From IMG/VR virus record IMGVR_UViG_3300032092_000009, positions 32,001-96,000 of that record: 64,000 nt of DNA, one strand, 5' to 3'. The position numbers were made by a program, and so were the translations under genes. Below, piece after piece: positions 2,269 through 31,390 of the stretch. The notes below the pieces were generated by a model, which had not been told where the DNA came from, searched no databases, and was given only the letters and a program-made list of their open reading frames with translations. The stretch's first letter is position 1. Every line of letters starts with the position of its first letter. The stretch comes from a virus (Duplodnaviria > Caudoviricetes).

Positions 2269-5200
2269 ATGAAGTCACTCAGCAGCAAAACCTACCAATG
2301 TGGAGTAACCATACAAGGTTTAACTACTCTTGCAGGAACTACTTATCTTACAGGAATAACCAATACAACTAGTTGGGAACACGTCATTGTAGGCACAACA
2401 GCCCAAGGACAGATTTACACTAGAACTTACGCTCAGTTTATGACTGACGTAGCTACAGGAATAGGTTTGAGTGGCTATGTTCCTACTTCTAGAACTCTGT
2501 CTATTAACGGAACTACTTACGATCTTACAGCTAATAGAAGCTGGACAATTGATACAGTTGCCTACACTTCTAGATTGCAACACCAAGTTAAAGCTGGTGT
2601 AGCAATTAATAAGGGTCAAGCAGTTTATGTAACAAGTGCAGATGGAACCAATATGATTGTTGGTTTGGCTTCTAATGCTTCTGAGGCTACTTCTAGTAAG
2701 ACTATGGGTCTTTTAGATGCCACAGTTGTTATTAACGGTTTTGCTAACGTAGTTACAGAAGGTCTTTTAGCAGGATTAGATACCTCAACAGCAGGTTCTG
2801 AGGGTGATCCTGTATGGCTAGGAACAGGTGGTAACTTGATTTATGGCCTAATTAATAAACCTTACGCTCCTGCTCACTTAGTTTTTATTGGTATTGTAAC
2901 CCGTAAAAACATCAATAACGGAGAGATTTTTGTAAAAGTTCAGAATGGATTCGAACTAAATGAAATTCATGACGTAGATTTAAAGACCACAGTGCCAGTA
3001 AACGGGCATATTCTTGGTTTTGATGGAACTCTTTGGGTAAATAAAACAATTGCAGGTTGGTTAGGATACACTCCAGCTAACGCAAGTGGTACTACTAACT
3101 ATCTTTCTAAGTTCACAGGAGCTAATACTCTAGGAAATTCTAAGATTGTAGATAACGGTAGTAACATTCAGTTCTTAGTAAACTCCCAGAATGCAAACTC
3201 TAAGTTTTATATGTCTCCTGTACACTCAGATGGACGTATTAATCTTAATGCAGTAGCTGGAACTAATGACTACACTATCTTAAGAACTTGGCATACAGGA
3301 AACACTGTAGGTCTAGGAAATGGTTCTACTTTTGGGTCTGCTTTGAGTACGTATTATGATTCTGTTCTTATAGGAACTAGTGGTGCTCTTTACTTTATGA
3401 ATGGTACTTTTGGACCATTAAACGTACCCTATCGTTTAGGAATTACTACAAGTTCTACAATTACTTACTTTAGTACTGGTGTTGAGAACAATACAACTAA
3501 CTTAGAGTCTAATGCTTTTCAATTTACAGCTAAAGCTCATACTTTTTATACAGGAACTACTACTGGTAATCAATCTAGCCCTAATCAGTATACTCCTCTT
3601 TTCCTTTCTACTGCAGGTAACGTAGTAGTAGGAAGTACAACAGATTCAGGTTATAAGTTGGATGTAGCGGGAACTGGAAGGTTTACAGGTAACCTTACCG
3701 TAAGTACAGGTGGATCAGGAACAAATACATTTAATGGAAACGTAAACTATTTATTTGCTAACCAAAATAATGTTTATGGATTAGTAGATCTGCAAAACGC
3801 AGCAGGTCAAAGCGTATTTTTTAAAGTAACAGGTACTCCAACCGCAGGAACTGGCTTTGATTATTTTTGGATATCAGGAACAACCACATCTAGTACCGTA
3901 GGAACTGTTAGGAATATATTCAATGTATCTCCTACCTATAACTTAACAGGAGCATTTACTGGAATAATGAGGGGATTTTATTACAATCCTACATTAACTT
4001 CTATGACTGGTGCGACTCACAGAGGAGTAGAAATTGCTTCAGGAGATTTTGTTTGGGGTAACGGGTACTCTTCAATTTATGGAGACAGTATTGAAGGATT
4101 TGTACAGTTTCAATCTTCAGGTAATAGTACTAAGATCTGGATAAGACCCTCAAGTAACCAAGGAGGATTTAATGGTAATTACTGGGGTTATCTAGAAAAC
4201 TCAGGATATACTACTACTCTTAAGTCAGGCGGATATCAAGATTTAAGTCTAGCTGGTGAATCTATTCGATTCAAGAATCAACACCTAGTTGAGCATGCAA
4301 GATTTGCCTCAAGCACTAATAACTTTTTAATTGGAACAGCTACTGATAGTGGATATAAACTAGACGTTAACGGAACAGCAAGAATAAACTCAAGTTTATA
4401 TGTAACTGATCCTGCTTATACAGGTGCTGGACGTTTTTACCAAGCTGCAAATGCTACTACGATTATTAGTGGTGGTCCTGCTGGTGAAAACATTACATTT
4501 GGTCCTTCTAACAGAGTCTTTATTAACGCTGGACAAAGTCGTTTTCCAGGGGGGTCTGTACAGATAGCAGCGTCACTTACTTTGGGTAGCTTAAATGCCA
4601 CTGGTACTAATATGCTTCTAATGCAAGGAAGCGTTACTGCTGGATCTGCTCTTGGAAGAGGTATAGGTATGGAGACTAGTTTGATAGCGGCTGCTAATAA
4701 TGACGTATTAGTAGGTTTAGATGTCAATCCTACATTTACTAACGGAGCTTTTACAGGAGTAACAAACTATGGAGCAAGAATTACTTCAAGTATTGGAAGC
4801 GATGGAACAAATCTTTACAGTGGATTTGTAACAAGAATACAGAACACTAAAGACTACGATAACGTAAATGGTGTTCTTCTTTTGGTTAATCAGAATGGAG
4901 GTGTACCAGGATATTTCATAAGAGCCGTAAATGCACAAGGAGGAGGTCAAACTAGATTCTATGTTGATGGAACTGGTGGACTTTATAGCATTGGAAATGG
5001 AACTTTTGGAGGAGATGTAGTAACTACTAAAGTACGTTGGAATACTGATGGAGATGGTTGGATTGGTGATGGAGGATTAGATGGTACGTTCATGGTTGTT
5101 ACTAATGGAACAGAACGTTACAGAGTAACTCCTAATGGAAATCTTCTTATTGGAACGACTACAGACTCTGGATATAAGTTAGACGTAGAGGGTAATGTTA

Positions 5201-18677: not shown

Positions 18678-18977
18678 ATGGCTACTAAATTAACTGAACA
18701 AGAAATCGAAGCAATCAAAGGCTTCCAGCAAAAGACTCAAAACGTAATTATGGATTTGGGTAAGATCGAACTTCAAATGAATGACTTGCTTTCTGTAAAA
18801 GAGAAGGTAAAAGAAGCAATGGCAGAAGTAGTAAAAGAACAGAATGAGTTCTTCCAGACTATCGAAGCTAGCTACGGTAAAGGTCAAATCAATTTGGATT
18901 CATTTGAATTTATTCCTGCTGAAGCACCTGTTGATGAAACTCCTGTAGTTCCTTTTACTCAGGCAGAAGTATTGTAA
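18678..18977 (+). CDS. Small acidic coiled-coil protein, 99 aa (possible fibre chaperone)
   Basis: Heptad-like Q/E/K/L pattern, YGKGQINLDS end, own promoter and terminator. Confidence 0.6.
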   Translation: MATKLTEQEIEAIKGFQQKTQNVIMDLGKIELQMNDLLSVKEKVKEAMAEVVKEQNEFFQTIEASYGKGQINLDSFEFIPAEAPVDETPVVPFTQAEVL

Positions 18978-18996
18978 TTTAACTTTATTTCATAAA

Positions 18997-19028
18997 GACC
19001 CTCAGAGAAATCTGGGGGTTTTTTGTTT
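18997..19028 (+). terminator. Intrinsic terminator
   Basis: GACCCTCAGA-GAAA-TCTGGGGGTT hairpin followed by a T tract. Confidence 0.85.
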
Positions 19029-19041
19029 TATAGCCAACTAG

Positions 19042-19071
19042 TTGACTTATTTTTTTAAAGTTTTATCTTTG
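19042..19071 (+). promoter_or_regulatory. Bacteroidota-type promoter for the lysis/exported-protein operon
   Basis: TTG 19042-19044, N19, TATCTTTG 19064-19071. Confidence 0.7.
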
Positions 19072-19125
19072 CCCATAACCAACCTTTTCTCACTTAAGTA
19101 CCGTTTATGAAAGTCCGAAGTTGCT

Positions 19126-19242
19126 TTGAACATCCTTTCAGATATCACTGTGCTAGTGAGTTTAACTGTTTTTCTCACTGTCCTGCTTTCTAAGTGGGCC
19201 ATAGAAGACATTATTAAATTTTTAAGAAATAAAAAAAGGTAA
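19126..19242 (+). CDS. Possible 38 aa single-TM peptide (not in ORF track)
   Basis: TTG start; (M)NILSDITVLVSLTVFLTVLLSKWAIEDIIKFLRNKKR; stop 4 nt before the next ATG. Confidence 0.4.
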   Translation: MNILSDITVLVSLTVFLTVLLSKWAIEDIIKFLRNKKR

Positions 19243-19246
19243 CTAT

Positions 19247-19495
19247 ATGAAACTATTAAACTTTATTGGCGGACTCTTCAAAGATGAGAAGGGTGTTGTC
19301 TCCATGAAACGCTTGTGCGGATTAGTATGCACAGCTACACTATGCGCTACATTGTACGCTAACTCTTTTACTGAAGCTCACTTTGCTCCTTCTGTTCCTT
19401 TGGTGGATGCGGTTGCTTTGTTGGCTTTTGGTTGTCTAGGTTTGACTTCTGTTGAGAAAATCATGAAGAAGCCAGAAGCACCTAGCGAAGACTAA
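19247..19495 (+). CDS. Putative holin, 82 aa
   Basis: Two hydrophobic helices, S.KR motif, charged C-terminus, directly upstream of the endolysin-like gene. Confidence 0.6.
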   Translation: MKLLNFIGGLFKDEKGVVSMKRLCGLVCTATLCATLYANSFTEAHFAPSVPLVDAVALLAFGCLGLTSVEKIMKKPEAPSED

Positions 19496-19500
19496 TTTAC

Positions 19501-19521
19501 TATAAACTATAAACTATAAAC
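19501..19521 (+). repeat. Tandem repeat (TATAAAC)x3
   Basis: Three exact 7-mers just upstream of ATG 19526. Confidence 0.8.
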
Positions 19522-19525
19522 AACT

Positions 19526-20113
19526 ATGAGCTACACAAGAGAACAAATCGAAGCGGCTATGAAAGCCAAAGGTTATAAGTACTTTGAGAATGGAGATTTT
19601 AACGTAAACATTATTGGTGTACGTAACTCTTCTACTGGTACTAAAGTAACTAACGTATTTGACGATCACTTAACTCTTTCTTACAAAGAAGGTGGTGAGT
19701 GGAAATTTAAAATCTGGCCTGCTACTACAGATCCAGGAACTAAGGGTGTTAAAGAATTCCATAACGCTGCAGGTGTTGCACGTTTGGTACCTGGTCAATA
19801 CTCAGGTTCACACCATGTAGGATTGCACCAAGGTAAGTACGAAGCCCTTAAGCAAAAGGCTAACGTTAAAGTTTACCGTGATGCTAACAAAGACATGAAC
19901 TATGACGAGTCCAAGATACAAGAAGGCATCTTCGGTATTAATATTCATAAAGCTGGTGCAGACTCTACCTACGTTGAAAACTGGAGCGAAGGTTGCCAAG
20001 TGTTCAAGAAGTCTGCTGACTTTGATGCATTCATGGTTATCTGTAAGAAGGCTGCGGCATTGGGTGGTAACTCTTTCACTTATACTCTTATTGAATCTAA
20101 AGATATCAAGTAA
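19526..20113 (+). CDS. Putative endolysin, L,D-transpeptidase (YkuD)-like His/Cys peptidase, 195 aa
   Basis: NIIGVRN..FDD..TTDPG..PGQY..GINIHKAG..NWSEGCQV; H-x(n)-S-x-G-C catalytic signature; adjacent to a holin-like gene. Confidence 0.7.
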   Translation: MSYTREQIEAAMKAKGYKYFENGDFNVNIIGVRNSSTGTKVTNVFDDHLTLSYKEGGEWKFKIWPATTDPGTKGVKEFHNAAGVARLVPGQYSGSHHVGLHQGKYEALKQKANVKVYRDANKDMNYDESKIQEGIFGINIHKAGADSTYVENWSEGCQVFKKSADFDAFMVICKKAAALGGNSFTYTLIESKDIK

Positions 20114-20584
20114 ATGAAAGGACTTCTAGTAAGTCTTTTCCTAATTCTTTCTATCCCCTGTTCTTCTCAAATCAATGTGATGAAGGCAGGGGATGGTTGG
20201 GATTTAAAGGTAGACTCGGCCTTAGCATTAATTGCTCAAACTGATGTCAACGCTTATACTAGAGTAATAGATGTCTGCCAAGTAATAGACTTCTGGATTA
20301 GCCCCTATTCCTCTAATACAATCTCCCAAGATGGTGGAACTATATTTATCGCTACAGGAGACATAAAAACGAATTCACTCAATAACCTAGCTTGTGTTAT
20401 TGTACATGAAAGTCTTCACTTATACTACTTGTTACATCCAGTAGAACAGTCACAGGACGAAGAAGAACTTAAGTGTTATATCTACGAGTTAGACTTTATA
20501 AAAAAACTACCAACCCCAGAGCCTTGGTTACAGGCAAATGCAATTGAACAATTACATAAATTAACTAAAACAAAAACAAAATGA
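20114..20584 (+). CDS. Exported zinc metallopeptidase-like protein, 156 aa
   Basis: Signal peptide; VIVHESLH (HExxH) with a downstream EELKCY Glu as possible third ligand. Confidence 0.7.
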   Translation: MKGLLVSLFLILSIPCSSQINVMKAGDGWDLKVDSALALIAQTDVNAYTRVIDVCQVIDFWISPYSSNTISQDGGTIFIATGDIKTNSLNNLACVIVHESLHLYYLLHPVEQSQDEEELKCYIYELDFIKKLPTPEPWLQANAIEQLHKLTKTKTK

Positions 20585-22479
20585 ATAAACTATTTAAAGT
20601 AATCATCGGGGTGTTGACATTGTTGGTTGGCAATGTATCAGCACAAAGTTCTGCTACCTCTCCAGGTACAGGTCATTGGGTTGTAATCGACTCAGGTTAT
20701 CAAGTAGCTACAAACACTGTAGGACAGACTGTAGCTCCTCTACACTTCTACAATACCTCTACTTCTGAAAAGATCACAGGTATGCAGTTCCGTGTATTCT
20801 ACGATAAGACAGCTTTCACAGCAGTTGTTCCTTCTCTTAAGATTTCTTCTACTGATCAATACTTGCAGTATGTAGATAGTAACACACAAGGTTTCTTAAC
20901 TGTTACATTGGCTTACACTGGATCTAGCTCAACATTTAACTACTCTAATGGAGCTACATTTGATCTTACCTTCACACACGCAAGCGCAGCTGTATGGAAC
21001 ACATTGGATTCTATTAAGACTCTTAAGGTATCAGGTGTTAAATCATTCGCTAACAAAGCCGCTACTAACTGGGGTAACGATACTACTTTAGTAGTTTACT
21101 CTTATGGTGGTCGCTTCAACCAGAAAGTATTAAGATTTGCTGCTAAGTTTAAAAACGTAACAGGTTCTGACGCTAAGAACTTGTGGGTGTCTTTGGAAAA
21201 GAAAGCTCCTTCAGGATCTTGGACTCAAGTAGAAGCTAAAGCAACTAACTCTAGTGGTGTTGTTGTATTCCGTAAATTCTTGGATACTACTTACTGGGAT
21301 GTACGTATGGTTGTTAAGGGAGATACTATGACCCCTGGTAACGTATTCTCTACTGCAGATGCACAGAAAATTAACCAGTCTATTCTAGGTCAATATGTTG
21401 CTTCAGGATTTGACTACTACACTATGGACGTAAACGGAACTGATGGAACTATTTCTATTGCTGATGTTTACTCTGTATACGGACGTTTGGCAGGTAGATT
21501 CTCTGCATGGCCTAATTCTAAGAAGGATGTAATGTTCTTTACAGTTGCTGAGTACAACTCAATTAATGGATCTGCTACTAACTTAACTTCTACTTACTCT
21601 ACTATTAATAACTTTAACTACACAATTGACGGTAGAGATTCTATCACTTACTACGTAGCTGTTAAAGGTGATGCTAACTCTACAGGATTTAAGATGGCTC
21701 GTTTAACACCTATTAAGATTGTTAACCCAGCTAATGCTAAGCGTTACATCATTGACGAGACTGTAGAATACGACTTCCCTGCAGAAACTATTGAGATCAA
21801 CATGCCTAAAGTAACTGTAGACGAAGGTAACTTGGTTAACGTACCAGTTAAAGTACTGACTAACGGAAAGAACTTAGGTGCACTACAATTAGACTTGCGT
21901 TATGACACTGCTTACTTAGAGTTTAAGAAAGTAGAAAACACTGAGAAGATGATGAAGTGGACTTCTTACTTGAACCCTTCTAATGGAATCATTTCTTGGG
22001 GAGCTGCTGACTTGACTAACGAGAACATGCTTAATGACGGAGAGCAAGTATTCACTCTTCAATTTATCGCTAAGAAGCCACAAGACTCTTGGGCTACTGC
22101 AGCTTTGTGGACAGGTGCTAAATACGTAGGAGACAAAAACTCTAAAGACATGAACATTACCCCTGCTATGGGAGTAATTGAAGTACGTAGAATTAACAAG
22201 GGAGTTGTTTCACTTAATGACTTGAACTCTATTATTACTTTTCCTAACCCTACAGAAGGTCCAGTACAAATACAATTCAAGATCAAAGAAGACAGCGAAG
22301 TAGACGTAGCTATCTCTGATGAGGTGGGAAGACGTGTACAAACGATTTTAAGAGAAAGAATGCCTGCAGGTAAGTACAAGTATAATACAAACCTAGATCG
22401 TCTCCCTAATGGCTTCTATGTACTTTCTGTAACAACTCAAAAAGAAATCTTACACTCCAAAATAATCGTACAAAAATGA
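20581..22479 (+). CDS. Exported cohesin / dockerin / cohesin protein with T9SS type A C-terminal sorting domain, 632 aa
   Basis: Signal peptide VSA|Q; cohesin-like ITGMQFRVFYD and VNVPVKV..LGALQLDLRYD..DGEQVFTLQF; dockerin/EF-hand-like MDVNGTDGTISIADV; CTD FPNPT..G..V..LPNGFYVLSV..SKIIVQK. Confidence 0.75.
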   Translation: MNKLFKVIIGVLTLLVGNVSAQSSATSPGTGHWVVIDSGYQVATNTVGQTVAPLHFYNTSTSEKITGMQFRVFYDKTAFTAVVPSLKISSTDQYLQYVDSNTQGFLTVTLAYTGSSSTFNYSNGATFDLTFTHASAAVWNTLDSIKTLKVSGVKSFANKAATNWGNDTTLVVYSYGGRFNQKVLRFAAKFKNVTGSDAKNLWVSLEKKAPSGSWTQVEAKATNSSGVVVFRKFLDTTYWDVRMVVKGDTMTPGNVFSTADAQKINQSILGQYVASGFDYYTMDVNGTDGTISIADVYSVYGRLAGRFSAWPNSKKDVMFFTVAEYNSINGSATNLTSTYSTINNFNYTIDGRDSITYYVAVKGDANSTGFKMARLTPIKIVNPANAKRYIIDETVEYDFPAETIEINMPKVTVDEGNLVNVPVKVLTNGKNLGALQLDLRYDTAYLEFKKVENTEKMMKWTSYLNPSNGIISWGAADLTNENMLNDGEQVFTLQFIAKKPQDSWATAALWTGAKYVGDKNSKDMNITPAMGVIEVRRINKGVVSLNDLNSIITFPNPTEGPVQIQFKIKEDSEVDVAISDEVGRRVQTILRERMPAGKYKYNTNLDRLPNGFYVLSVTTQKEILHSKIIVQK

Positions 22480-22823
22480 ACATTAAAAAAGCACTTGGTT
22501 TTAGCCAAGCAGAACCAGTAGTAGTAGATCCTAAGAATAGGTTCTATTATATGCTACAACAAATGCAAGCCAATCGTTGGAAGATCACTGCTATCGTATT
22601 AGGTTTGTTCTTCTTTATTATCCTTGGTATTAACTCAGCTGTATTCTTCGGAGTAGAGATTGCGGAGAACTGGAAAGAAATGTTGCTTATTCTTTTTGGA
22701 GCATTCGTAGGTAATTTGAACAAAGTAGTAGACTACTGGTTTAATTCTGAAGATCGAGATAAGATGCTAATACAGAAGGTGGATGAGGAAGATGGTGAAT
22801 CATTGTCAAATAATAATCCATAA
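22476..22823 (+). CDS. Two-TM membrane protein (holin-like), 115 aa
   Basis: Two hydrophobic helices, LFGAFVG..VVDYWFNS, acidic tail; ATGA overlap with the upstream gene. Confidence 0.6.
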   Translation: MNIKKALGFSQAEPVVVDPKNRFYYMLQQMQANRWKITAIVLGLFFFIILGINSAVFFGVEIAENWKEMLLILFGAFVGNLNKVVDYWFNSEDRDKMLIQKVDEEDGESLSNNNP

Positions 22824-22827
22824 TAAT

Positions 22828-23151
22828 ATGTCAGAAGAACAAGAAGAAAGCGTAATGTCAGCTACTAAGAAAGCTATCATTGGCGCAGTCACCACTGCTG
22901 TAACTGCAGGAGGTGCATGGTTTGCCACTCACTTTGGTGGCGGTGAAGAACCTAAAGAAGAAGCTAAAACAGAACAAGCACCCGCTGCTGCTCCTGTGAT
23001 TAACTTGAATCTAGAGAACAACAACACTAACCAGCAGAAACAATCTTCAGGTGGAACTACTACTATCATCAAAGAAAGAACAGTAGAAAAACCTGCAGCT
23101 CAATCTGCTCCTGCAACCAAACCACAAGCTGATGAGGAAGATCCTTGGTAA
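22828..23151 (+). CDS. Small membrane-anchored low-complexity protein, 107 aa
   Basis: ATG 22828 after an A-rich leader; AIIGAVTTAVTAGGAWF hydrophobic segment, APVINLNLENNN, ends EEDPW. Confidence 0.7.
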   Translation: MSEEQEESVMSATKKAIIGAVTTAVTAGGAWFATHFGGGEEPKEEAKTEQAPAAAPVINLNLENNNTNQQKQSSGGTTTIIKERTVEKPAAQSAPATKPQADEEDPW

Positions 23152-23839
23152 ATGGTTTAACAAGTTCATGACTCTTGTAGTCTTGACCTTAGCAGGTTGT
23201 GGTTCTATGAAGACTACTACCGAAGAAGATAAAGTGGAGGTTAAAGACATCTCCACTGTATCTAATTATAGTGATTCTATTAAAAAAACAGTACAAGTGG
23301 TAAGCGTAGATATGACCAAGGTACTTGCTCTTTATCCTGCTCTTCAGGAAAAGAACGTAGGTCTTGGATTTGCAGAATCTGTTTTGGATTATTTGGATGA
23401 AACAAACAGATTTATATTTACGGAAGAAAAATCAGAGATCAAAGAAAGAATGGTCACTCAATTCAAAGCATCAAAGAAAGGCGTATTCGATGAGCCTATT
23501 GATGGCAAAGGTAAGATTAAGCCTGCTCACTACTTTGTGTATGTTACTGTGGCTGATTTTGCTGTTGATGAAGACGAGCAAGTTGATGGCCTTAAGTCAA
23601 AAGTTGTTGTCACTACCTTCATTCGTTTACAAGTTCGCTTTGTGGACGCTAAAACAGGTCAGATCTATATTGGATCTGGCGAAGGAGAGTCGACTAAGAC
23701 TGGTGAATCATTCTTAAAATCTTTAGATGATATGAAGTTCTCTCAAAGCACAGTAGGTAAAGCTACTCGTAAATCTTTGGAGACAGCTTGTACTAATGTG
23801 ATTCAAAATCTCATTAAGTCAGGTGTATTTAAAAACTAA
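23132..23839 (+). CDS. CsgG-like (curli assembly / FlgO / TolB-N fold) lipoprotein, 235 aa
   Basis: Lipobox LAG|C; GLGFAESVLDYLDETNRF, GKIKPAHYFVYVTVADF, LQVRFVDAKTGQI..GSGEG pattern typical of the CsgG superfamily. Confidence 0.7.
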   Translation: MRKILGKWFNKFMTLVVLTLAGCGSMKTTTEEDKVEVKDISTVSNYSDSIKKTVQVVSVDMTKVLALYPALQEKNVGLGFAESVLDYLDETNRFIFTEEKSEIKERMVTQFKASKKGVFDEPIDGKGKIKPAHYFVYVTVADFAVDEDEQVDGLKSKVVVTTFIRLQVRFVDAKTGQIYIGSGEGESTKTGESFLKSLDDMKFSQSTVGKATRKSLETACTNVIQNLIKSGVFKN

Positions 23840-25298
23840 AATACTAATACTATTTATGATAGCTCTGTCTCTTCGGGGGCAGAGCTTTATTTATTCGTAT
23901 ACAGATCCGTGTACACAGGAGTTAAAGTTTATTAACGCAGACATGTCTAGTCCTATAGTGATTGCTTACTACGGACAGGTTAAAACTTTCTCCTACACAG
24001 AGTTACAAGATGGTACGTTTGATAATTGGATAAATAGTGTATATTTGAAGTATCAAAGTACATCACCCTGTCAAGGAGTTGGAGTAACAACTACTACAAC
24101 TACCACAACAAATACTACCCTAAACATTGTAAGCAATGTTATGAACCTAGGGGCTATTTCAAATGTTGGTAGTGTAAACGTAGACGTAGGCTCAAGTACC
24201 TCTTCAGGAACAAACATAGGAACAACAAAAACCAATAATAACAATGACAATCGAACTAGTTCTCGGAATCGTACTAGCAGTAGCTCTAGTCGTTCTAATT
24301 CTTCTGGCAGCTCGTCAGGAGAAAATGGAAAATCAAATGATGGAGGAAACTCATCAGAAAATCAAAGTGGGTCTTCATCCAACTCCAACTCCAGTGGAGA
24401 AGGCAGCGGAGAAGGTAATGGAGGAAGCAGTAGCTCCAGCTCCAGTTCCAGTAGTAGTGGAGGAAACTCCAGTGGTAGTGGAACTAGTGGAAGTAGTAGT
24501 GGAAGCTCCCAAGGTGGAGGCGGAAGTGGTGGTAAAACCGAAGAAAAAACGGAAGTACAAACCGAGGAACCCACAGAACAAAAAGTAGAAGAAACTAAAA
24601 CTGAGACTCAAAAATCTCAGTCTACTGGTACTGCAAAAGCTGCAGGAAAAGCTAAAGCCGAAGTTGCTAAGCCTGCAATCTTAGTAACTGGTGATTTAGT
24701 TGGTATTCAGACTAAGTCTGATGGAGCACAAGATGCAAGAGGTACTGCCTCTTTTACTAGAGTAAAGGGAGACGGTACTTCTTCTCTTGGGTTTTCAGCT
24801 GACTACATGGTTAACGCTAGAATAGGAAATATCTCTTGCGTACGTTCCTGGATAGGAGCAAACAAAAAAGGACACAAACATATCAGTGTTGTATCTGATG
24901 GACTTAGCATAATGCCTAAGTCAATGTCAAACACTCTTCTATTTGTAAGAGTTAATTCAGTTAAAAACTTTACAGCGCTCTACGGAGCAGCGGGAACCTA
25001 CGGTAAACTATTTGGAGAAGAAATGATTTCTACCATTGCCATAGGAGGTTTTATGTACAAAGGTAAACTTACTAAGAGTATAGACGCTACAGTTATTATG
25101 GCTGGTATCTATTCTCCTTATTCTAAGTATTACACAGAGTCTATATTTGAAGCTAAGCCTATTGTTATTCCTTTCTTCAACTTTACATATAGAATGACCA
25201 AGACTTTTGGTTTAGGTATTACTGGAGGAGGAACATACGTAGCAGGACAGGATATATTGAACTTTCAATTATTAATGGGAGCTAAGTTATTAATATGA
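23823..25298 (+). CDS. Exported protein: N-terminal Cys-pair domain, Ser/Gly linker, probable C-terminal outer-membrane beta-barrel, 491 aa
   Basis: Signal peptide LRG|Q, YTDPC..SPC, long Ser/Gly tract, alternating amphipathic strands ending LNFQLLMGAKLLI. Confidence 0.6.
   Translation: MYLKTKILILFMIALSLRGQSFIYSYTDPCTQELKFINADMSSPIVIAYYGQVKTFSYTELQDGTFDNWINSVYLKYQSTSPCQGVGVTTTTTTTTNTTLNIVSNVMNLGAISNVGSVNVDVGSSTSSGTNIGTTKTNNNNDNRTSSRNRTSSSSSRSNSSGSSSGENGKSNDGGNSSENQSGSSSNSNSSGEGSGEGNGGSSSSSSSSSSSGGNSSGSGTSGSSSGSSQGGGGSGGKTEEKTEVQTEEPTEQKVEETKTETQKSQSTGTAKAAGKAKAEVAKPAILVTGDLVGIQTKSDGAQDARGTASFTRVKGDGTSSLGFSADYMVNARIGNISCVRSWIGANKKGHKHISVVSDGLSIMPKSMSNTLLFVRVNSVKNFTALYGAAGTYGKLFGEEMISTIAIGGFMYKGKLTKSIDATVIMAGIYSPYSKYYTESIFEAKPIVIPFFNFTYRMTKTFGLGITGGGTYVAGQDILNFQLLMGAKLLI
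24244..24588 (+). CDS. Nested alternative-frame membrane protein, 114 aa
   Basis: A-rich leader ACCAATAATAACA-ATG, clean N-terminal TM helix, Glu/Val/Pro stalk, basic tail KPKKKRKYKPRNPQNKK. Confidence 0.6.
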   Translation: MTIELVLGIVLAVALVVLILLAARQEKMENQMMEETHQKIKVGLHPTPTPVEKAAEKVMEEAVAPAPVPVVVEETPVVVELVEVVVEAPKVEAEVVVKPKKKRKYKPRNPQNKK

Positions 25299-26278
25299 GG
25301 TGGTTAGTTATTCTATTCTTTATTGTAAGCCCTCTAAGTGCACAATTTACTTATTCTGGATACTTGTATAATGCAAATGGATCTGGGGCCAACAACGTAG
25401 CTATAAAACTGTATAGAAGAACTAACTCAACTATTACAGGCTTTACTAATCAGCAGAACTACAACGGGCACTCTTATTACCGTTCTACAGGAACTGCATT
25501 TTGGACTACAGCCAAGACTAACTGCTCTAATATGGGAGGGCACTTAGTAACTATTACAACTTCAGGAGAGCAAAGTTTTCTATATAATCTCTGGCCTTCT
25601 GGATGGATAGGACTAACAGATGAAGTAACAGAAGGTACTTGGAGATGGGTTACAGGGGAAAGTTATTCTTATTCTAACTGGAACTCTGGAGAACCTAATA
25701 ATGCAGGTAACGAAGATTATGTTCAATTTGTATCTAATGGTAGGTGGAATGACTTACCTAATAACTACGCACTTCCTTATGTACTAGAGTTTGAGTATTT
25801 AGTAACTACTTCTTCTTGGACACTCTACAAGACTATATATACTAACTCTTCGGGTTACTATTCTATTTCTGAGACTTACGATCCTTCTAAGGAATACTAC
25901 ATTGAGATAGATGCTCCTACCAGAATTCAATCTTATACAACTTCAGACATTCAAGGAGTATCTAATATTATTCTCGGAAGGAGTGTAAGGAATGGTTTGT
26001 CTTTTCATATGTTTGATGTTAATGAAGACGGAGTAATTTCTATAGCAGATAAGTATTATGTAGCTGCGAGGAAAGCTGGTTTATTCTCTAGATGGAGAAC
26101 AGCTCCTGATGTAAGGATCTTTACTACTGCTCAATACAATTCAATTAAAGCAGCAACAACAAACGTAAGAGCAACCTATCCTGGAGTTACTACTCATACT
26201 ACAACTACCTTAACCTCAGGGGGAAGTTTAAACTTATATATAATAGCTCCTGGCTATGCTGGAGCAGTAACCTACTAA
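25295..26278 (+). CDS. Exported C-type lectin plus dockerin-like protein, 327 aa
   Basis: Signal peptide LSA|Q; CTLD motifs YNGHSYY, C..MGGHLVTI, WIGLTD, EG.W.W, W..GEPNN, WND; dockerin-like FDVNEDGVISIAD. Confidence 0.85.
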   Translation: MRWLVILFFIVSPLSAQFTYSGYLYNANGSGANNVAIKLYRRTNSTITGFTNQQNYNGHSYYRSTGTAFWTTAKTNCSNMGGHLVTITTSGEQSFLYNLWPSGWIGLTDEVTEGTWRWVTGESYSYSNWNSGEPNNAGNEDYVQFVSNGRWNDLPNNYALPYVLEFEYLVTTSSWTLYKTIYTNSSGYYSISETYDPSKEYYIEIDAPTRIQSYTTSDIQGVSNIILGRSVRNGLSFHMFDVNEDGVISIADKYYVAARKAGLFSRWRTAPDVRIFTTAQYNSIKAATTNVRATYPGVTTHTTTTLTSGGSLNLYIIAPGYAGAVTY

Positions 26279-26280
26279 CT

Positions 26281-26727
26281 ATGAAAAAACTATTTATACT
26301 TTGCTTTCTAGTCACTATGATGACTTCTCTGAGTGCTCAATGCTATAAAGTTGACACTGTAACATCAATTGCTTCTGTAACAGAAATAGGAGGAAGACCT
26401 ATAATCTTTGGAGCACAAACAACTTTAGAAGAGATTGCAGCCTCAAAGTACCAACTATGTAATGAGGGCAGTCCTATTTCAGGAACAATCAAATCCATTG
26501 CTATGCCTGAAGAACTCTTAAATATCGTAGGGTTACAGTTTCTTAAGAGAGACTATATTGTAATCACTGAGATAAATCTAAATGGAGTAACTGTTCTTGG
26601 AGAGGCTAAAAAGACTGTCTATGTTAATGCTATGTTTGTTTCTGTAGAAGGTATTCCTCATAACAGAAAAGCTTATTCTAAGGCATTGGAGAAGTCTTTC
26701 AAGAATGGATTTGAGAATTTGAAATAG
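26281..26727 (+). CDS. Exported protein, 148 aa
   Basis: Signal peptide LSA|QC, Cys pair, C-terminal helix AYSKALEKS reminiscent of the end of the CsgG-like protein. Confidence 0.7.
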   Translation: MKKLFILCFLVTMMTSLSAQCYKVDTVTSIASVTEIGGRPIIFGAQTTLEEIAASKYQLCNEGSPISGTIKSIAMPEELLNIVGLQFLKRDYIVITEINLNGVTVLGEAKKTVYVNAMFVSVEGIPHNRKAYSKALEKSFKNGFENLK

Positions 26728-26736
26728 TTTTTGTTC

Positions 26737-27020
26737 CTTCTCATTCTGAGAAGTAGTCTATTTTGACTTTCTATTCTAACTTATATTGCAGCAGTTTTTA
26801 ACCAAATAGCTCTCGGAGCTAAGTCTCTGTTCTGTCCACTTATTGCCTACGGTCTATTACTTGTAGGTCAGAGCACTGCAAACTTCATTAGAACATTTTG
26901 ACACTATCGGAGAAACCTCTTTTCACCTCTGAGGGCTACTCATACTATCCAACTTCTAGCAGATTACTTTTTAATCCTCGTCTGCGAACATTAAGAAATG
27001 GTGTCGGGGGGTCAAAGATA
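26737..27020. ncRNA. Candidate structured non-coding element
   Basis: Largest ORF-free gap. Helices CTTCTCA/TGAGAAG, AGCTC/GAGCT, GCCTAC/GTAGGT, GCAGT/ACTGC, GCAGA/TCTGC, GACACTAT/ATGGTGTC; minus-strand -7 box at 27013-27020. Confidence 0.35.
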
Positions 27021-27081
27021 AAGCGACTTACGTGTAAGTAGATGTCCGTGTGGAAAATTTGTGAAATAAAAGATAGCTAGA

Positions 27082-27354
27082 TTAGAGTCCAGCTACATTC
27101 TGAGCATGCATATAGTCTGTCTGCTGCATAGGTTGATCATCTCCTAGAATAGATTCTAGAGCATAGTCAATATAATCGAAGAGCATTTCTTCTGTGTACT
27201 TCTTTCTATAGGTAAAATCTTTGAATCCTTGATAAAGGGCATCCTTGAATCCACCTATGTCTCCTGCTATCTTGACCTCTTCATCCTGTAAGGCTAGAAG
27301 GAAGAACTCGAATACTTCTTCTGAGGTCGGCTTTTTAACTTTTTCCATCGACAT
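27082..27354 (-). CDS. Small acidic hypothetical protein, 90 aa; only convincing minus-strand gene
   Basis: ATG at 27354 (MSMEKVKKPTSEEVFEFF..), downstream of a minus-strand TATATTTG at 27373-27380. Confidence 0.7.
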   Translation of the reverse strand: MSMEKVKKPTSEEVFEFFLLALQDEEVKIAGDIGGFKDALYQGFKDFTYRKKYTEEMLFDYIDYALESILGDDQPMQQTDYMHAQNVAGL

Positions 27355-27372
27355 AGCAGTAATTGTTTGATA

Positions 27373-27380
27373 CAAATATA
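27373..27380 (-). promoter_or_regulatory. -7 promoter element
   Basis: CAAATATA reads TATATTTG on the minus strand; the -33 position reads TAG rather than TTG. Confidence 0.55.
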
Positions 27381-27511
27381 GGTTTAAATAAAGTTTTGTC
27401 TATAGTGTTTATCTAATTCCCTGAGACATCTAAAATAATTATCTAGGTTACAAATTGAGTTAACACGTGTAACATTTGATATTAATTACTGGTTTAGACT
27501 TAACATTTAAC

Positions 27512-27541
27512 TTGACTTTTTTTGTTACAATCGTATATTTG
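27512..27541 (+). promoter_or_regulatory. Bacteroidota-type promoter for the packaging operon
   Basis: TTG 27512-27514, N19, TATATTTG 27534-27541. Confidence 0.75.
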
Positions 27542-27565
27542 TTTAGCAAAAAACAAACCAAACCA

Positions 27566-27922
27566 ATGAAAGTAGCACGTAGATATGAAGAAGGAGTTAA
27601 GTTACATCAAGCATATATTGATGTATTGCTCAGACTTGCAGGGTATAGATTATCAGATTTATACACTAGTATATTAGCCCATAGTTCCTACTACGGCACT
27701 TTAGACAAAGAAGTAAAAGAAAGAATCGCTGGTGAGTTTAACACATCAATTCAGGTAATCTCTAATGGAATTACTAGATTAAGAAAGATGGGCATCTTAG
27801 AAAAAAACATAGTCAACCCAAGACTGTGTCCTACTAGCAAGCAAGGTGTTACACTCACATTGGTTCTTTCAACAGGCAATGGAGTAACTGAGAATAAGGC
27901 AGAGAGCGCAATAGCAGTATGA
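27566..27922 (+). CDS. Winged helix-turn-helix-like DNA-binding protein, 118 aa
   Basis: ATG 27566 downstream of the promoter; KERIAGEFNTSIQVISNGITRLRKMGILEK HTH pattern. Confidence 0.6.
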   Translation: MKVARRYEEGVKLHQAYIDVLLRLAGYRLSDLYTSILAHSSYYGTLDKEVKERIAGEFNTSIQVISNGITRLRKMGILEKNIVNPRLCPTSKQGVTLTLVLSTGNGVTENKAESAIAV

Positions 27923-28461
27923 GGAAAGTAAAAGATAGGTATGAAGGTATTGAAATAAAAACTTATGCAGCTTACTCAGAAGTTGCTAAGGAAACTGGAA
28001 TGACTATCGACCAAGTAAGCACTATCTACGAATGGTACTTAAAGAAGACCATAGAAGAGATAAGAGATCTTCCTACTGTGAAAGTAAGAATGTCTGGCTT
28101 AGGAGTACTTGTATTTAATCCTAACAAAGCAATCAAGATCATTGCTACTAAGATTAAGTCTGAGTACTTGATTACCCAGGAATCCAGAGAAGACTGTACA
28201 GCACTTAGAGGATATAACAATTATTATATGCTTAAAGACTGGCTTAGGATTTTCGAAGAAAGGTACGAAAGAGGAAAGAGCAAGAAACTATACACAGACG
28301 TAGTAGTAGATTACATGGACAGAGAATTACTAAGACAAAAACAAAACCACAAAAATTTATATGAATCCTTACAAAGAGTACATGGCCCTGAGCCTGAAGG
28401 GTCTGAAGAATTTGAACAAAGTCTTGGAGGGAGTAGCAACGAAGACAGCGAATCAATTTAA
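27919..28461 (+). CDS. HU/IHF-like protein, 180 aa
   Basis: EVAKETGMT..QV..IY..Y...VRMSGLGVL resembles the HU/IHF N-terminal fold. Confidence 0.55.
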   Translation: MRKVKDRYEGIEIKTYAAYSEVAKETGMTIDQVSTIYEWYLKKTIEEIRDLPTVKVRMSGLGVLVFNPNKAIKIIATKIKSEYLITQESREDCTALRGYNNYYMLKDWLRIFEERYERGKSKKLYTDVVVDYMDRELLRQKQNHKNLYESLQRVHGPEPEGSEEFEQSLGGSSNEDSESI

Positions 28462-28744
28462 ACTATTGAGTAATGAAAAACAGAACGTTATCGCAGAGAG
28501 AATGGATATTTGTATCAAGTGTCCCTACAATTCAACAAACGCAGTCACTTCCCCTGAGTACTTACAACTTACGGGCGAACACTACAGCACCACAAGGACA
28601 GAACTACACTGTTCGTTTTGTGGTTGCATCTGCACCTACAAAACAGCATCCCTATCTTCGGATTGTGGAATAGAAACTTGGAATAACTCCAACCCTAACA
28701 ACCCAGAAAAACACTTAGAACTATTATGGAAAAGAACAGAGTAA
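28361..28744 (+). CDS. Cys-rich, probably zinc-binding, phage protein, 127 aa
   Basis: ERMDICIKCP..CSFCGC..KT.S..SDC..W pattern. Confidence 0.7.
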   Translation: MNPYKEYMALSLKGLKNLNKVLEGVATKTANQFKLLSNEKQNVIAERMDICIKCPYNSTNAVTSPEYLQLTGEHYSTTRTELHCSFCGCICTYKTASLSSDCGIETWNNSNPNNPEKHLELLWKRTE

Positions 28745-28857
28745 AAAAGACCACAATCAAGAATGGTTGTGACAAAAAGCCAGGAAGCAAGTGTGGAGTA
28801 CAAATTTACTTCTTGCCTGCTGACAAACCTCTAACACAGGTTTCTTCTAAAAAATAA
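28726..28857 (+). CDS. Small basic protein, 43 aa (not in ORF track)
   Basis: MEKNRVKKTTIKNGCDKKPGSKCGVQIYFLPADKPLTQVSSKK; fills the gap and stops 4 nt before the next ATG. Confidence 0.45.
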   Translation: MEKNRVKKTTIKNGCDKKPGSKCGVQIYFLPADKPLTQVSSKK

Positions 28858-28861
28858 GATT

Positions 28862-29068
28862 ATGGAAAACCACCAAGCCCCTAGTCCTCAACCTCACGTA
28901 GCCAATACTCTCCAAGATAACTTATTTGAAACATTTAAGATCTTCTGGAAAGCAGGTTACTCTTATGGAAAGACAGGAAGGGATGAAGATTTCTATGCAC
29001 GTGTCCTAGAAGACATTATGAATATGAATCAAATTGACTTCCTAAAAAAGTACAACAATGGCAACTAA
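28862..29068 (+). CDS. Hypothetical protein, 68 aa
   Basis: ATG start, overlaps the next gene's start. Confidence 0.6.
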   Translation: MENHQAPSPQPHVANTLQDNLFETFKIFWKAGYSYGKTGRDEDFYARVLEDIMNMNQIDFLKKYNNGN

Positions 29069-29375
29069 GAAATTATCATACATATCAGCAGAGTTAGAGT
29101 GGGCAGAACAACGCCTAACTGAGTGGAGGGCATACATTGATAACAATCCTATCAACGGACTCAAAGACAGGATTGAATGGAAGCCAACAGCTAAAGGAGG
29201 AACTATGCCTATGGTTATTGCTAGTCAAGAATCTCAAATCAAGTCTTTAAGAGATACTATGAAAGAGTATCTAGCTCTTTTAGAAGTAGTAGATAGATTG
29301 AGAGAGAAAGAAGAGCAAAAAGCAGAAGCTAGAGGTTCTCAAGAGATCAATGGTAAGATGAAACAGTTTAGTTAA
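29058..29375 (+). CDS. Helical protein directly upstream of TerL (terminase small subunit candidate), 105 aa
   Basis: Position and coiled-coil ending ARGSQE; function inferred from position. Confidence 0.45.
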   Translation: MATKKLSYISAELEWAEQRLTEWRAYIDNNPINGLKDRIEWKPTAKGGTMPMVIASQESQIKSLRDTMKEYLALLEVVDRLREKEEQKAEARGSQEINGKMKQFS

Positions 29376-29380
29376 TAGTT

Positions 29381-31390
29381 ATGTATCCAAATCTAGAAAG
29401 TCCTGAATTCCTAATCAACGTACACAATCTCCCTGACGCAGACTCAGAGGAGTATACTGCGTTCTGGGAAAACGAGGACAAAAAGATTACAGAGGGTGTA
29501 ACTATTAACGGATTCTATTTTTCTCCTTTTATTTACTGGCACTTAAACTACTGGTCCATTTATGTGGACACTATGATAGGTAAGCGTCAAGTTCGTAAAT
29601 TAGATAAACCTCAGTTGTGGGACACCTACTTAGCTGTAGATGAAACTATCAACAAAGCTGAGAATCACGAAGACGGAAAGAAAGGAGTTGTTATGGTAGG
29701 ATCAAGACGTATCTCTAAATCAGTTCTTACTTCTTCCTATATGGCTCACAAGGCTGTAACACAGAAGGGATCTGACAACTTGATATCTGCGCTTAATCAA
29801 CCTGACTTAAAAGTAATCACAGACTATGTAGACTTAGGTCTTAGAAACCTTCCTGACTATTTTAGATTTCCTCGTATTGAGGATGACTGGAAGAAGCAGG
29901 TAACTTTAGGTTTTAAAGATAAAAAGACTAACGCTCGTAATGAGTGGTCTAAGTTTCATGTACGTAACTTCGATGAAGGTAACAATACGGAAGCAGCGGC
30001 AGGTCTTACTCTATCTTCGTTTCTTTTGGAAGAAGGAGGAAAAGGAAAGATCCTTAGTTGTTTAGCGGCAACTACTCCGTGTTTTGATAGTCCTTATGGA
30101 TGGCGTTGCTCTCCTTTTGTAATTGGAACTTCTGGAGACATGAGTAAAGCAGCTGACCTAGAAGAACTTTTCAATAACCCAGAAGCTTATAACTTTCTTC
30201 CTGTAGAATCTAACGAATCAGGAAAGTCTTACGGATTGTTTATTCCAGGAACTCGTTCTTTGAAAGTACCAAAAGAAGAAAAGCCTTTAGGACTTTACTT
30301 AGGTAAGGAAGGTCAGTCCGAGTTAGATCTAATTAAGATCTGGGTAGCAGACGAAGAAAAAGGTAAAGACCAGATTCTTAAGTCTAGAGAGCAGATTAAA
30401 AAGTCTAGTGGATTAGAGACTTACTTGAAAGAAGTAATGTATTACCCACTAACTCATGAAGAGTGTTTCCTAGAACTGTCTCAGAATATCTTTCCAGTAG
30501 ATTTGCTTCAGGAACAATTACAGAAACTAACAGCTCAAGAGATTGTAGCTGACAACGTAGAACTGTATACAGGATCTGAAGGAACTATTAGACACAAGTT
30601 TACAGATAAGAAAGCCGTTACAATGTTCCCAGTGAAGCCAACAGATGACATTGAGGGTTGCGTACAGATTTGGGAATATCCTCTCTCAGATGCTCCCTAT
30701 GGGCTTTATACAGCAGGAACGGATCCATACAAACAATCACAGGCTCACTACTCAACTTCTTTAGGGTCTACTTACATCTACAAAAGGGTACATAGTCTTA
30801 ACGGAGAAGGGTGGCAGAATATGGTTGTTGCTTGTTACACAGGTCGTCCTAAGAAGATTGAGACTTGGTACGAGACTACTAAGATGCTTCTTAAGTATTA
30901 CAATGCTAAGACTCTTTGTGAAAACATGGACTACGGTTTTATCCAACACTGTGTAGATAAGAACGAATCTCCCAGAGTACTTGAGAAGACACCTAGATTC
31001 TTAAATGATATTCATCCTAACTCTACAGTTAATCGTGACTATGGTATTCACATGACTAAAGATATTAAAAACTATTTGATGTCCCTCATCATTGAATACA
31101 TTACCGAAGTAGTAGAGATAGAGAGAGACGCAGATGGAAACATAGTAAAAGAACGCTTAGGAGTAACCAGAATATTAGACCCTGTACTGATTAAGGAATT
31201 AATTAAGTTTACACCTAAGTTAAACGTTGACCGAGTTATATCTTTTGGCTTGACATTAGCAATGGCTAAATCATTGAACACTCAGGTAATCATATCTGAT
31301 GCAAGTCAAGACACTAGAATGCAAGCATACTTTAGAGAGAAGAAAGGGAACTCTCTATTCCGTACTACCTCATCTCCCTTCCGTTATTAA
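29381..31390 (+). CDS. terL: Terminase large subunit, 669 aa
   Basis: Walker A-like GSRRISKS, Walker B-like FLLEEGG, VIGTSG coupling motif, RNase H nuclease AGTDPY..CEN..NVDRV; precedes the portal gene. Confidence 0.92.
   Translation: MYPNLESPEFLINVHNLPDADSEEYTAFWENEDKKITEGVTINGFYFSPFIYWHLNYWSIYVDTMIGKRQVRKLDKPQLWDTYLAVDETINKAENHEDGKKGVVMVGSRRISKSVLTSSYMAHKAVTQKGSDNLISALNQPDLKVITDYVDLGLRNLPDYFRFPRIEDDWKKQVTLGFKDKKTNARNEWSKFHVRNFDEGNNTEAAAGLTLSSFLLEEGGKGKILSCLAATTPCFDSPYGWRCSPFVIGTSGDMSKAADLEELFNNPEAYNFLPVESNESGKSYGLFIPGTRSLKVPKEEKPLGLYLGKEGQSELDLIKIWVADEEKGKDQILKSREQIKKSSGLETYLKEVMYYPLTHEECFLELSQNIFPVDLLQEQLQKLTAQEIVADNVELYTGSEGTIRHKFTDKKAVTMFPVKPTDDIEGCVQIWEYPLSDAPYGLYTAGTDPYKQSQAHYSTSLGSTYIYKRVHSLNGEGWQNMVVACYTGRPKKIETWYETTKMLLKYYNAKTLCENMDYGFIQHCVDKNESPRVLEKTPRFLNDIHPNSTVNRDYGIHMTKDIKNYLMSLIIEYITEVVEIERDADGNIVKERLGVTRILDPVLIKELIKFTPKLNVDRVISFGLTLAMAKSLNTQVIISDASQDTRMQAYFREKKGNSLFRTTSSPFRY

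Follow-up and report, generated by a model that had tools for sequence, protein, structure and literature searches.

In phage phiX174, gene E lies wholly inside gene D in the +1 frame, is thought to have arisen by overprinting, and encodes a protein in the class of about 90 to 115 amino acids (aa) that is the sole lysis protein of this phage. In the Rz/Rz1 system of phage lambda, the embedded gene encodes an outer-membrane (OM) lipoprotein and its host gene an inner-membrane protein, and the two genes may be embedded, overlapped, or separate in related phages. Some holins consist of a single transmembrane (TM) domain and a charged C-terminal tail. Reviews of viral overprinted (de novo) genes (PMC8227390, PMC3744397) describe new frames on older ones whose composition is unusual, whose codon usage is atypical, and whose taxonomic range is narrow. 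The current study deals with a nested gene in a window of 64,000 bases, i.e., bases 32001 to 96000 of the 110,868-base virus record IMGVR_UViG_3300032092_000009 (estimated completeness, 94%). An open reading frame (ORF) of 114 aa at 24244..24588 (stop included) starts with ATG and lies in the +1 frame of a gene for a 491-aa secreted protein at 23823..25298, which is termed the host gene below; both are on the plus strand. With a probability of roughly 0.85, we regard this ORF as a genuine protein-coding gene overlapping the linker-coding part of an autotransporter-like OM protein gene. The family occurs nested or free-standing downstream of an endolysin-like gene in related phages. Overprinting was the central claim of a first-pass annotation made from the sequence alone, and it is borne out by free-standing homologues under purifying selection and by constrained synonymous sites of the host gene.

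The ORF was recovered as annotated, with its ATG and its position inside the 491-aa ORF, and the hydrophobic N terminus, the Val/Glu/Ala/Pro middle part, the basic tail (VKPKKKRKYKPRNPQNKK), and the A-rich leader that had been read from the sequence were all confirmed. The leader comprises 36 nucleotides (nt; 24208..24243) and is coded by Thr, Lys, and Asn codons of the host gene. The TM segment (residues 5 to 23, 24256..24312), whose best 19-residue Kyte-Doolittle (KD) mean is 3.34, includes the family-invariant Gly8. According to the sequence alone, short charged motifs and then a low-complexity stalk rich in Val, Glu, Ala, and Pro follow the TM segment. The juxtamembrane region contains RQEK and E-x-HQKIKVGL (residues 24 to 44, 24313..24375), and AAEKVMEEA (residues 54 to 62, 24403..24429) is kept in nested and free-standing forms. 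The stalk (residues 63 to 96, 24430..24531) is a hypervariable spacer in both frames, and the free-standing homologues lack it or have another sequence in its place. The polybasic C-terminal tail (residues 97 to 114, 24532..24585) contains nine Lys or Arg residues among 18 and the invariant core KPKKKRKYK. An alignment of the nested and free-standing members together (A1) has as invariant positions M1, T2, G8, R24, Q38, A54, A55, V58, E61, A62, K98 to K106, and N109. The product would thus be a small single-pass membrane protein composed of a TM helix with an invariant glycine, RQEK, QKIKxG, and AAEKVMEEA motifs, a variable spacer, and the polybasic tail KPKKKRKYK. The 110.9-kb record contains one copy of the gene and no second one.

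Homologues of the nested gene also stand free. A scan with the back-translated tail motif yielded 53 viral-contig loci (designated by L-numbers, as are all loci fetched in the scans), i.e., 28 nested loci with an intact nested ORF and a host frame without stop, 20 unrelated loci, and 5 free-standing loci, which represent three distinct genes of 95 aa (L050, identical to L120), 103 aa (L080, identical to L098), and 102 aa (L095, identical to L110). The host frame is broken by 7 to 10 stops in the free-standing copies, and only the nested frame is open; L050 has 10 stops in the host frame and more stops in the third frame. No overlapping ORF on the same strand reaches 60 aa in L050 or 70 aa in L110. 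The L050 contig and the window are collinear on either side of the exchanged interval, namely, at L050 1-1326 (81% nucleotide identity to window positions 18812-20114) and 3230-6214 (78% to 26701-29726), and between these flanks L050 carries two DUF2589 genes, a gene for an 86-aa TM/coiled-coil protein, and the 95-aa gene at 2930..3217. Its homology to the host gene extends only from 8 nt before the nested ATG through the nested stop and includes a stretch of 94% nucleotide identity across the AAEKVMEEA motif (L050 3101-3133 versus window 24403-24435); the QKIKAG motif is found in the free-standing L080 and L110 as well. A search for the host gene in the L050 record, which is 69% complete, did not find it, which is weak evidence. 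The free-standing genes are located downstream of homologues (69 to 97% protein identity) of two genes of the window, i.e., an 82-aa TM protein gene without family match (19247..19495) and, directly behind it, an endolysin-like gene (19526-20113; phrog_33083 endolysin, E 3e-13; phrog_3000). They lie two to three genes past the latter, after two small TM/signal-peptide genes with coiled-coil-like tails.

As the first-pass annotation had proposed, the nested peptide was also searched against phage proteins, and the search retrieved 25 called proteins, most of them on contigs of 506 to 2662 bp with the host gene cut off. A divergent group of called proteins (P0022 to P0025) is 43 to 52% identical to the nested peptide and includes the free-standing P0025, which is encoded on the 81.5-kb contig L050. 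A metagenome scan with P0025 gave 12 loci, the L050 contig being the sole free-standing one. Gene callers miss genes nested in another frame, and this ORF was called only on short contigs with a truncated host gene and in its free-standing form.

The free-standing copies are under purifying selection, since the ratio of nonsynonymous to synonymous substitution rates (dN/dS) is 0.12. This value was obtained for L110 versus L080, which differ over 101 codons at 15, 10, and 44 first, second, and third positions (proportion of synonymous differences pS, 0.588; proportion of nonsynonymous differences pN, 0.127). The 19 tail codons compared between L050 and the window show seven base differences, 7/7 at third positions of the nested frame, with 19/19 identical residues. 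Constraint within the overlap was measured on 16 unique nested-form sequences, which are kin, so that counts over them are not independent events; the nested residues were classed solely by the agreement among the three free-standing proteins. Host-synonymous pairwise diversity is 0.097 at invariant (n = 42), 0.212 at variable (n = 48), and 0.245 at gapped residues (n = 24), compared with 0.246 outside the overlap, and the permutation p value for the reduction at invariant residues is 0.00035. The same test on nine representatives gave 0.143, 0.294, and 0.347, respectively, and when the residues were graded by identity to the window, the diversity was 0.271, 0.193, 0.131, and 0.078 for 0, 1, 2, and 3 matches. 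The nested copy constrains the synonymous sites of the host gene. The observed/expected ratio of host-synonymous change is 0.23 to 0.40 in the juxtamembrane region and 0.17 to 0.43 in the tail.

The same constraint is visible in rare codons of the host gene. Gly8 is encoded via CGG, the rarest Arg codon of the host gene (1% usage), which is kept in 14/14 main-clade sequences and likewise in L013 and L015; Arg24 is encoded via TCG, a rare Ser codon (2% usage) that is unchanged in 14/14; and Pro99 and Arg103 are encoded via the rare Thr codons ACC (9%) and ACG (3%), kept in 16/16. Pairwise diversity at host positions 1/2/3 is 0.22/0.16/0.25 over the whole overlap and 0.07-0.08/0.03-0.05/0.25-0.26 in the folded host domains. 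The idea that the Ser/Gly codons of the linker are a by-product of the nested frame holds for part of the gene: it applies to the end of the TM segment, to AAEKVMEEA, and to the tail, where CGG, TCG, ACC, and ACG are retained, and fails for the Val/Glu/Pro stalk, which changes at a neutral rate at all three positions.

Putative signals for separate expression are found in front of the nested gene. The 20 nt before its ATG (-20 to -1) have an A fraction of 0.70, with A at -3, whereas the mean at the gene starts of the window is 0.51 (standard deviation [SD], 0.12). Among 812 ATGs inside window genes, the nested one has the most A-rich leader, and 0/811 others reach 0.65. In Bacteroidota such as Flavobacterium, translation is reported to be initiated independently of Shine-Dalgarno pairing, with initiation favored by an A at -3 (PMC6847099). 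Ribosomes may therefore start at the internal ATG via this exceptionally A-rich leader that lacks a Shine-Dalgarno sequence. A plausible candidate for an internal promoter, TTTG-N18-TATATTTG, is located on the plus strand at 24018..24047 in the coding region of the host N-domain, 204 nt upstream of the nested ATG. The pattern has 7 matches in 64 kb versus 2.3 expected. It is invariant in 16/16 nested-form sequences and absent from the host genes of 9/9 more distant relatives (clades B and C and phage immuto), despite nearly the same encoded residues there, and it coincides with the lowest synonymous change found along the host gene (observed/expected ratio, 0.09 to 0.29), outside the overlap. 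TAnnTTTG is given as the sigma-A -7 box of flavobacteria in a further report (PMC9723704). The element TATATTTG also occurs 18 and 26 nt before the ATG of the free-standing L080 and L110, respectively, and was not found within 300 nt of the L050 ATG. The conserved motif may be the origin of a separate transcript.

A scan of viral contigs with the host gene yielded 47 loci. In the close clade (host protein identity, 72 to 95%), the nested ORF is intact in 18 full-length loci and the window, plus 7 further loci, and these ORFs keep the ATG, the TM segment, AAEKVMEEA, and the basic tail. Both frames are open in all 16 unique sequences of the codon alignment. L013 and L015 have a different N-terminal sequence that still forms a hydrophobic TM helix with the glycine. 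The expectation that homologous loci would keep both frames open with a conserved ATG and TM segment thus came true for the close clade and failed beyond it, as the +1 frame contains stops in clades B and C and the phage immuto homologue has no TM segment.

Several observations weigh against a genuine gene, and many of them favor the best-surviving alternative, an untranslated shadow ORF: the +1 frame would be open, hydrophobic, and basic only through the Ser/Gly/Asn and Lys/Glu/Thr codons of the host gene, without effective translation. When the same host residues were recoded synonymously 5000 times with the codon usage of the genome, an ATG-initiated ORF of at least 114 aa arose in 62% and a TM-like stretch (mean KD value of at least 1.6) in 94% of the recodings. 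The codon-usage score of the nested frame (-0.14) equals that of noncoding +1 frames (-0.16; SD, 0.09) and is far from that of real genes (0.24; SD, 0.08); the host frame is also poor in the overlap (-0.06). In the stalk region, the diversity at host positions 1/2/3 is 0.258/0.197/0.328, so that about 34 codons evolve neutrally and without constraint, and a sliding scan of the synonymous rate shows minima not only at the end of the TM segment and in the tail but also at a site beyond the overlap, which is that of the promoter-like motif. In clade B (L018, L030, and L031; host identity, about 60%) and clade C (L021 and L033 to L036; about 55%), stops interrupt the +1 frame and other hydrophobic stretches occur at other places in it, and phage immuto has an 83-aa +1 ORF without TM segment. 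A free-standing copy was sought and not found in the records of clade B, clade C, and immuto, which are 18 to 66% complete, making this a weak negative. Neither the nested nor the free-standing proteins match any family in PHROGs, Pfam, or NCBIfam, spanin and holin families included. To these points the kinship of the nested-form sequences mentioned above has to be added.

The recoding results are explained by the composition of the host linker. It is nearly devoid of Val, Leu, Ile, and Met codons, the sole ones able to create +1 stops, and the +1 frame therefore runs across it without interruption; host codons with T or C at the third position result in hydrophobic +1 residues. Openness, ATG, and hydrophobic N terminus of the nested ORF are, by themselves, unremarkable, and comparative evidence is therefore required. 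More specific features are rarer, since 13% of the recodings gave an ORF that was 100 aa or longer and had a TM-like stretch in its first 15 residues, and the observed hydrophobicity was equaled or exceeded in 2.9%. The comparative evidence makes the shadow ORF improbable: the family persists where the host frame is destroyed, with a dN/dS of 0.12; the tail differences are synonymous in the nested frame without exception; the freezing of host-synonymous sites is proportional to family conservation; rare host codons are conserved; and the A-rich start context is unique among internal ATGs. Recoding and codon usage, i.e., the tests that use a single sequence, both pointed to the wrong answer here. 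Nested ORFs of this kind should not be dismissed as shadows on the basis of one sequence, and in low-complexity linkers the cost of keeping a second frame open is low.

Slightly less probable still is a relic, i.e., a real family whose nested copy is no longer expressed and persists only through the need for an open host frame, the function being confined to the free-standing copies of other phages. The unconstrained stalk would fit such a decay, the host frame alone would prevent frameshifts in the region, and the available RNA data do not help to reject it: identical read-length contigs of the RNA library run X15 cover 24066-24215 and 24233-24383 but are too sparse to establish transcription and carry no information on translation. 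No contig of this run covers 23841-24065 or 24384-26179, from which, given the sparseness, nothing follows on transcript ends, and runs X16, X17, and X19 contain only relatives at 90 to 99% identity, which may be DNA. Against a relic stand the lack of a second copy in the record of the window, the synonymous-site constraint measured inside the nested forms themselves, and the retention of ATG, A-rich leader, and promoter-like motif in 16/16 sequences, and in L013 and L015 the TM sequence differs yet remains a TM helix with glycine. Very improbable is the embedded spanin-like pair suggested by the first-pass annotation, in which the nested TM protein would act with the barrel protein as a link between inner and outer membrane in the final lysis step: the +1 embedding in an envelope-protein gene, as in Rz/Rz1, the endolysin-like gene about 4 kb upstream, and the position of free-standing copies beside small TM/coiled-coil genes two to three genes after it recall such a pair, but the nested product is a TM protein and not a lipoprotein and has neither a signal peptide nor a lipobox, the 491-aa host protein has an ordinary signal peptide and a barrel and no lipobox, the charge of low-complexity stalk and polybasic tail makes a cytoplasmic location more likely, free-standing homologues occur where the host gene was not found (in a 69% complete record), and no spanin family matches.

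The genuine-gene reading leaves the question of how the gene arose. A tree was computed from 12 nested and 5 free-standing proteins; the latter form one group in 0/200 bootstrap trees, and the L050 type is placed inside the nested forms as sister to L003/L022/L023 (support, 89/92), so that a transition from the nested to the free-standing state has probably occurred at least once. Clades without the nested gene also have the conserved host-frame segment that lies under the tail (E-x-P-x-E-Q-x-V-E-E-x-K-x-E-T-Q), which favors a birth on host DNA over the capture of a foreign gene, and the destroyed host frame of L050 is still linker-like when read. We would give even odds to a de novo origin of the small gene by overprinting on the disordered linker and the Lys/Glu/Thr segment, where this frame is open and hydrophobic or basic at almost no cost, followed by at least one escape, whereby the nested gene would have become an ordinary free-standing gene as the surrounding host gene was lost. 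Foreign capture appears rather unlikely; an older capture would be compatible with phage immuto, which lacks the segment under the tail. The remaining weight, of similar size, is left unassigned. If birth and escape are true, living relatives show both stages in the life cycle of an overprinted gene. The coexistence of nested and free-standing relatives allows the evolution of one protein to be compared between copies that are constrained by a second frame and copies that are not, opens the birth-and-escape model of overprinted genes to testing, and offers a rare natural system for the origin and separation of overlaps.

With respect to function, the charge distribution around the TM helix, with little charge before it and a flank bearing Lys and Arg after it, suggests that the nested protein is probably oriented with its N terminus outside and that the acidic spacer and the polybasic tail are cytoplasmic. 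The constant position of the free-standing genes after the endolysin-like gene may point to a role in lysis timing or at the envelope, and an inner-membrane role in a lysis- or envelope-linked step, e.g., as a holin-like or holin-regulating protein, is a tentative guess. Holin-like traits are present, i.e., the small size, the TM helix, the charged C terminus, and the proximity to the endolysin-like gene (two to three genes in the free-standing loci and about 4 kb in the window). The 82-aa TM protein encoded directly upstream of the endolysin-like gene, whose gene is kept by those relatives in which the small gene stands free, would be the more conventional holin candidate. Lysis genes had been noted as neighbors of the nested gene; these come down to a single endolysin-like gene (phrog_33083), which lies about 4 kb upstream. 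A match of the nested protein to MreC was rejected as noise (E 0.0079; 15 bits versus a cutoff of 384), and an ESM Atlas search with the small protein gave scores of only 0.76 to 0.77, under the lead level. A limited search of the literature on lysis genes of Flavobacterium phages turned up nothing on this small-protein family, which does not establish its absence from print. Little is known of the lysis systems of freshwater Bacteroidota phages, and with this gene their endolysin-proximal region gains a conserved small membrane protein that had not been annotated.

The host protein is predicted to consist of a signal peptide, an N-domain (residues approximately 20 to 113), a disordered Thr/Ser/Gly/Asn linker (approximately 115 to 280), and a 12-stranded C-terminal barrel (approximately 285 to 489). 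A first model of the barrel domain, based on 13 close sequences, was discarded because of a predicted local distance difference test (pLDDT) value of 38. The AlphaFold2 model of the host protein was based on an alignment of 50 sequences (A3), partly obtained from a profile search, and has a mean pLDDT of 64, with 75 to 90 for the N-domain, less than 50 for the linker, and 77 to 91 for the twelve strands. The top Foldseek matches in the PDB are all OM barrels (TamA barrel, E 3e-5; NanC and KdgM, target-normalized template-modeling scores of 0.60 to 0.69; and PcoB), and autotransporter/intimin beta-domains are found among the matches (3qq2, 1uyn, 4mee, and 3kvn). The first-pass assignment of the host gene to an OM beta-barrel protein is well supported by this model. 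The predicted layout resembles that of autotransporters, and the best target-normalized scores go to the KdgM/NanC porins. A profile search with the host protein retrieved 56 cluster representatives (E of at most 1e-10) of 400 to 711 aa, in which the barrel is nearly always C-terminal, and no family match was obtained in Pfam, PHROG, or NCBIfam. The poly-Thr and Ser/Gly tracts of the host gene are also covered on the minus strand by three antisense ORFs of 59 to 78 aa (24071-24250, 24362-24574, and 24375-24611), whose products are of very low complexity (poly-Val and Leu/Pro repeats) and which resemble shadow ORFs of this low-complexity DNA. The free-standing gene of L110 is likewise covered by an antisense ORF, of 91 aa.

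Every large ORF of the window is located on the plus strand, and the GC content is 36 to 40%. Named relatives are limited to Flavobacterium phages of the immuto group (gene immuto26A_18, 31.6% identity to the host protein over 59% of its length), a neighboring gene encodes a cohesin domain together with a type IX secretion sorting domain, and the window DNA was recovered in freshwater metagenome runs. From these three lines of evidence, a freshwater member of the Bacteroidota is the most likely bacterial host, and the virus would be an uncultivated freshwater Bacteroidota phage, probably of Flavobacteriia. Directly upstream of the host gene, and overlapping its start by 17 nt, lies a gene for a separate 235-aa lipoprotein with the lipobox LAGC (23132..23839), which stays beside the host gene in the relatives, phage immuto included. 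This protein has only a subthreshold, LpoB-like N-terminal match (E 0.0012; 19 bits versus a cutoff of 110).

The region after the endolysin-like gene is apparently an exchangeable cassette, because a 6.6-kb block of the window (20114-26700) is replaced by a 1.9-kb block in the close relative L050 (1327-3229). The block of the window encodes an HExxH protein, the cohesin/type IX secretion-sorted protein, two small TM proteins, the lipoprotein, the barrel protein, a C-type lectin, and a small secreted protein, and that of L050 consists of two DUF2589 genes, the TM/coiled-coil gene, and the free-standing small gene. The C-type lectin gene (25295-26278), which directly follows the host gene, has conserved ends and a middle part that is swapped among the relatives L004 to L012, with variants of 327, 387, and 402 to 433 aa. 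ORFs of 216 to 225 aa are inserted beside module genes in some relatives, i.e., just upstream of the host gene in L015/L016 (2357-3004) and L022 (3079-3726) and after the endolysin-like gene in L095 and L110 (L110, 574-1251). The inserted ORF of L110 matches homing-endonuclease PHROGs, the GIY-YIG family among them.

Compared with the described systems, the nested gene resembles phiX174 E in its size, its +1 embedding, and the sequence of an N-terminal TM segment and a charged basic C terminus. However, phiX174 is a tiny single-stranded DNA phage, whereas the phage studied here exceeds 110 kb and has an endolysin-like gene; the two proteins lack sequence similarity, the nested family has free-standing members, and the host-frame segment encodes a disordered linker, whereas that of phiX174 belongs to a folded scaffold protein. 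With Rz/Rz1 it shares the full +1 embedding in an envelope-protein gene and an arrangement that varies among related phages, but the roles are reversed, the OM partner is a 12-stranded barrel, the nested pair has neither a lipobox nor a family match, and a periplasmic coiled-coil domain is not apparent from the sequence. Single-TM holins are similar in size, N-terminal TM segment, basic C terminus, and the endolysin neighborhood seen in the free-standing loci, but no holin family of PHROGs, Pfam, or NCBIfam matches the nested protein. The nested gene resembles the reviewed viral overprinted genes in the new-on-old frame, composition, codon usage, and narrow range. It differs from them in that the same gene is present in overlapped and in free-standing form among close relatives and in that the older frame is a low-complexity linker, so that the two frames scarcely conflict outside three short motifs.

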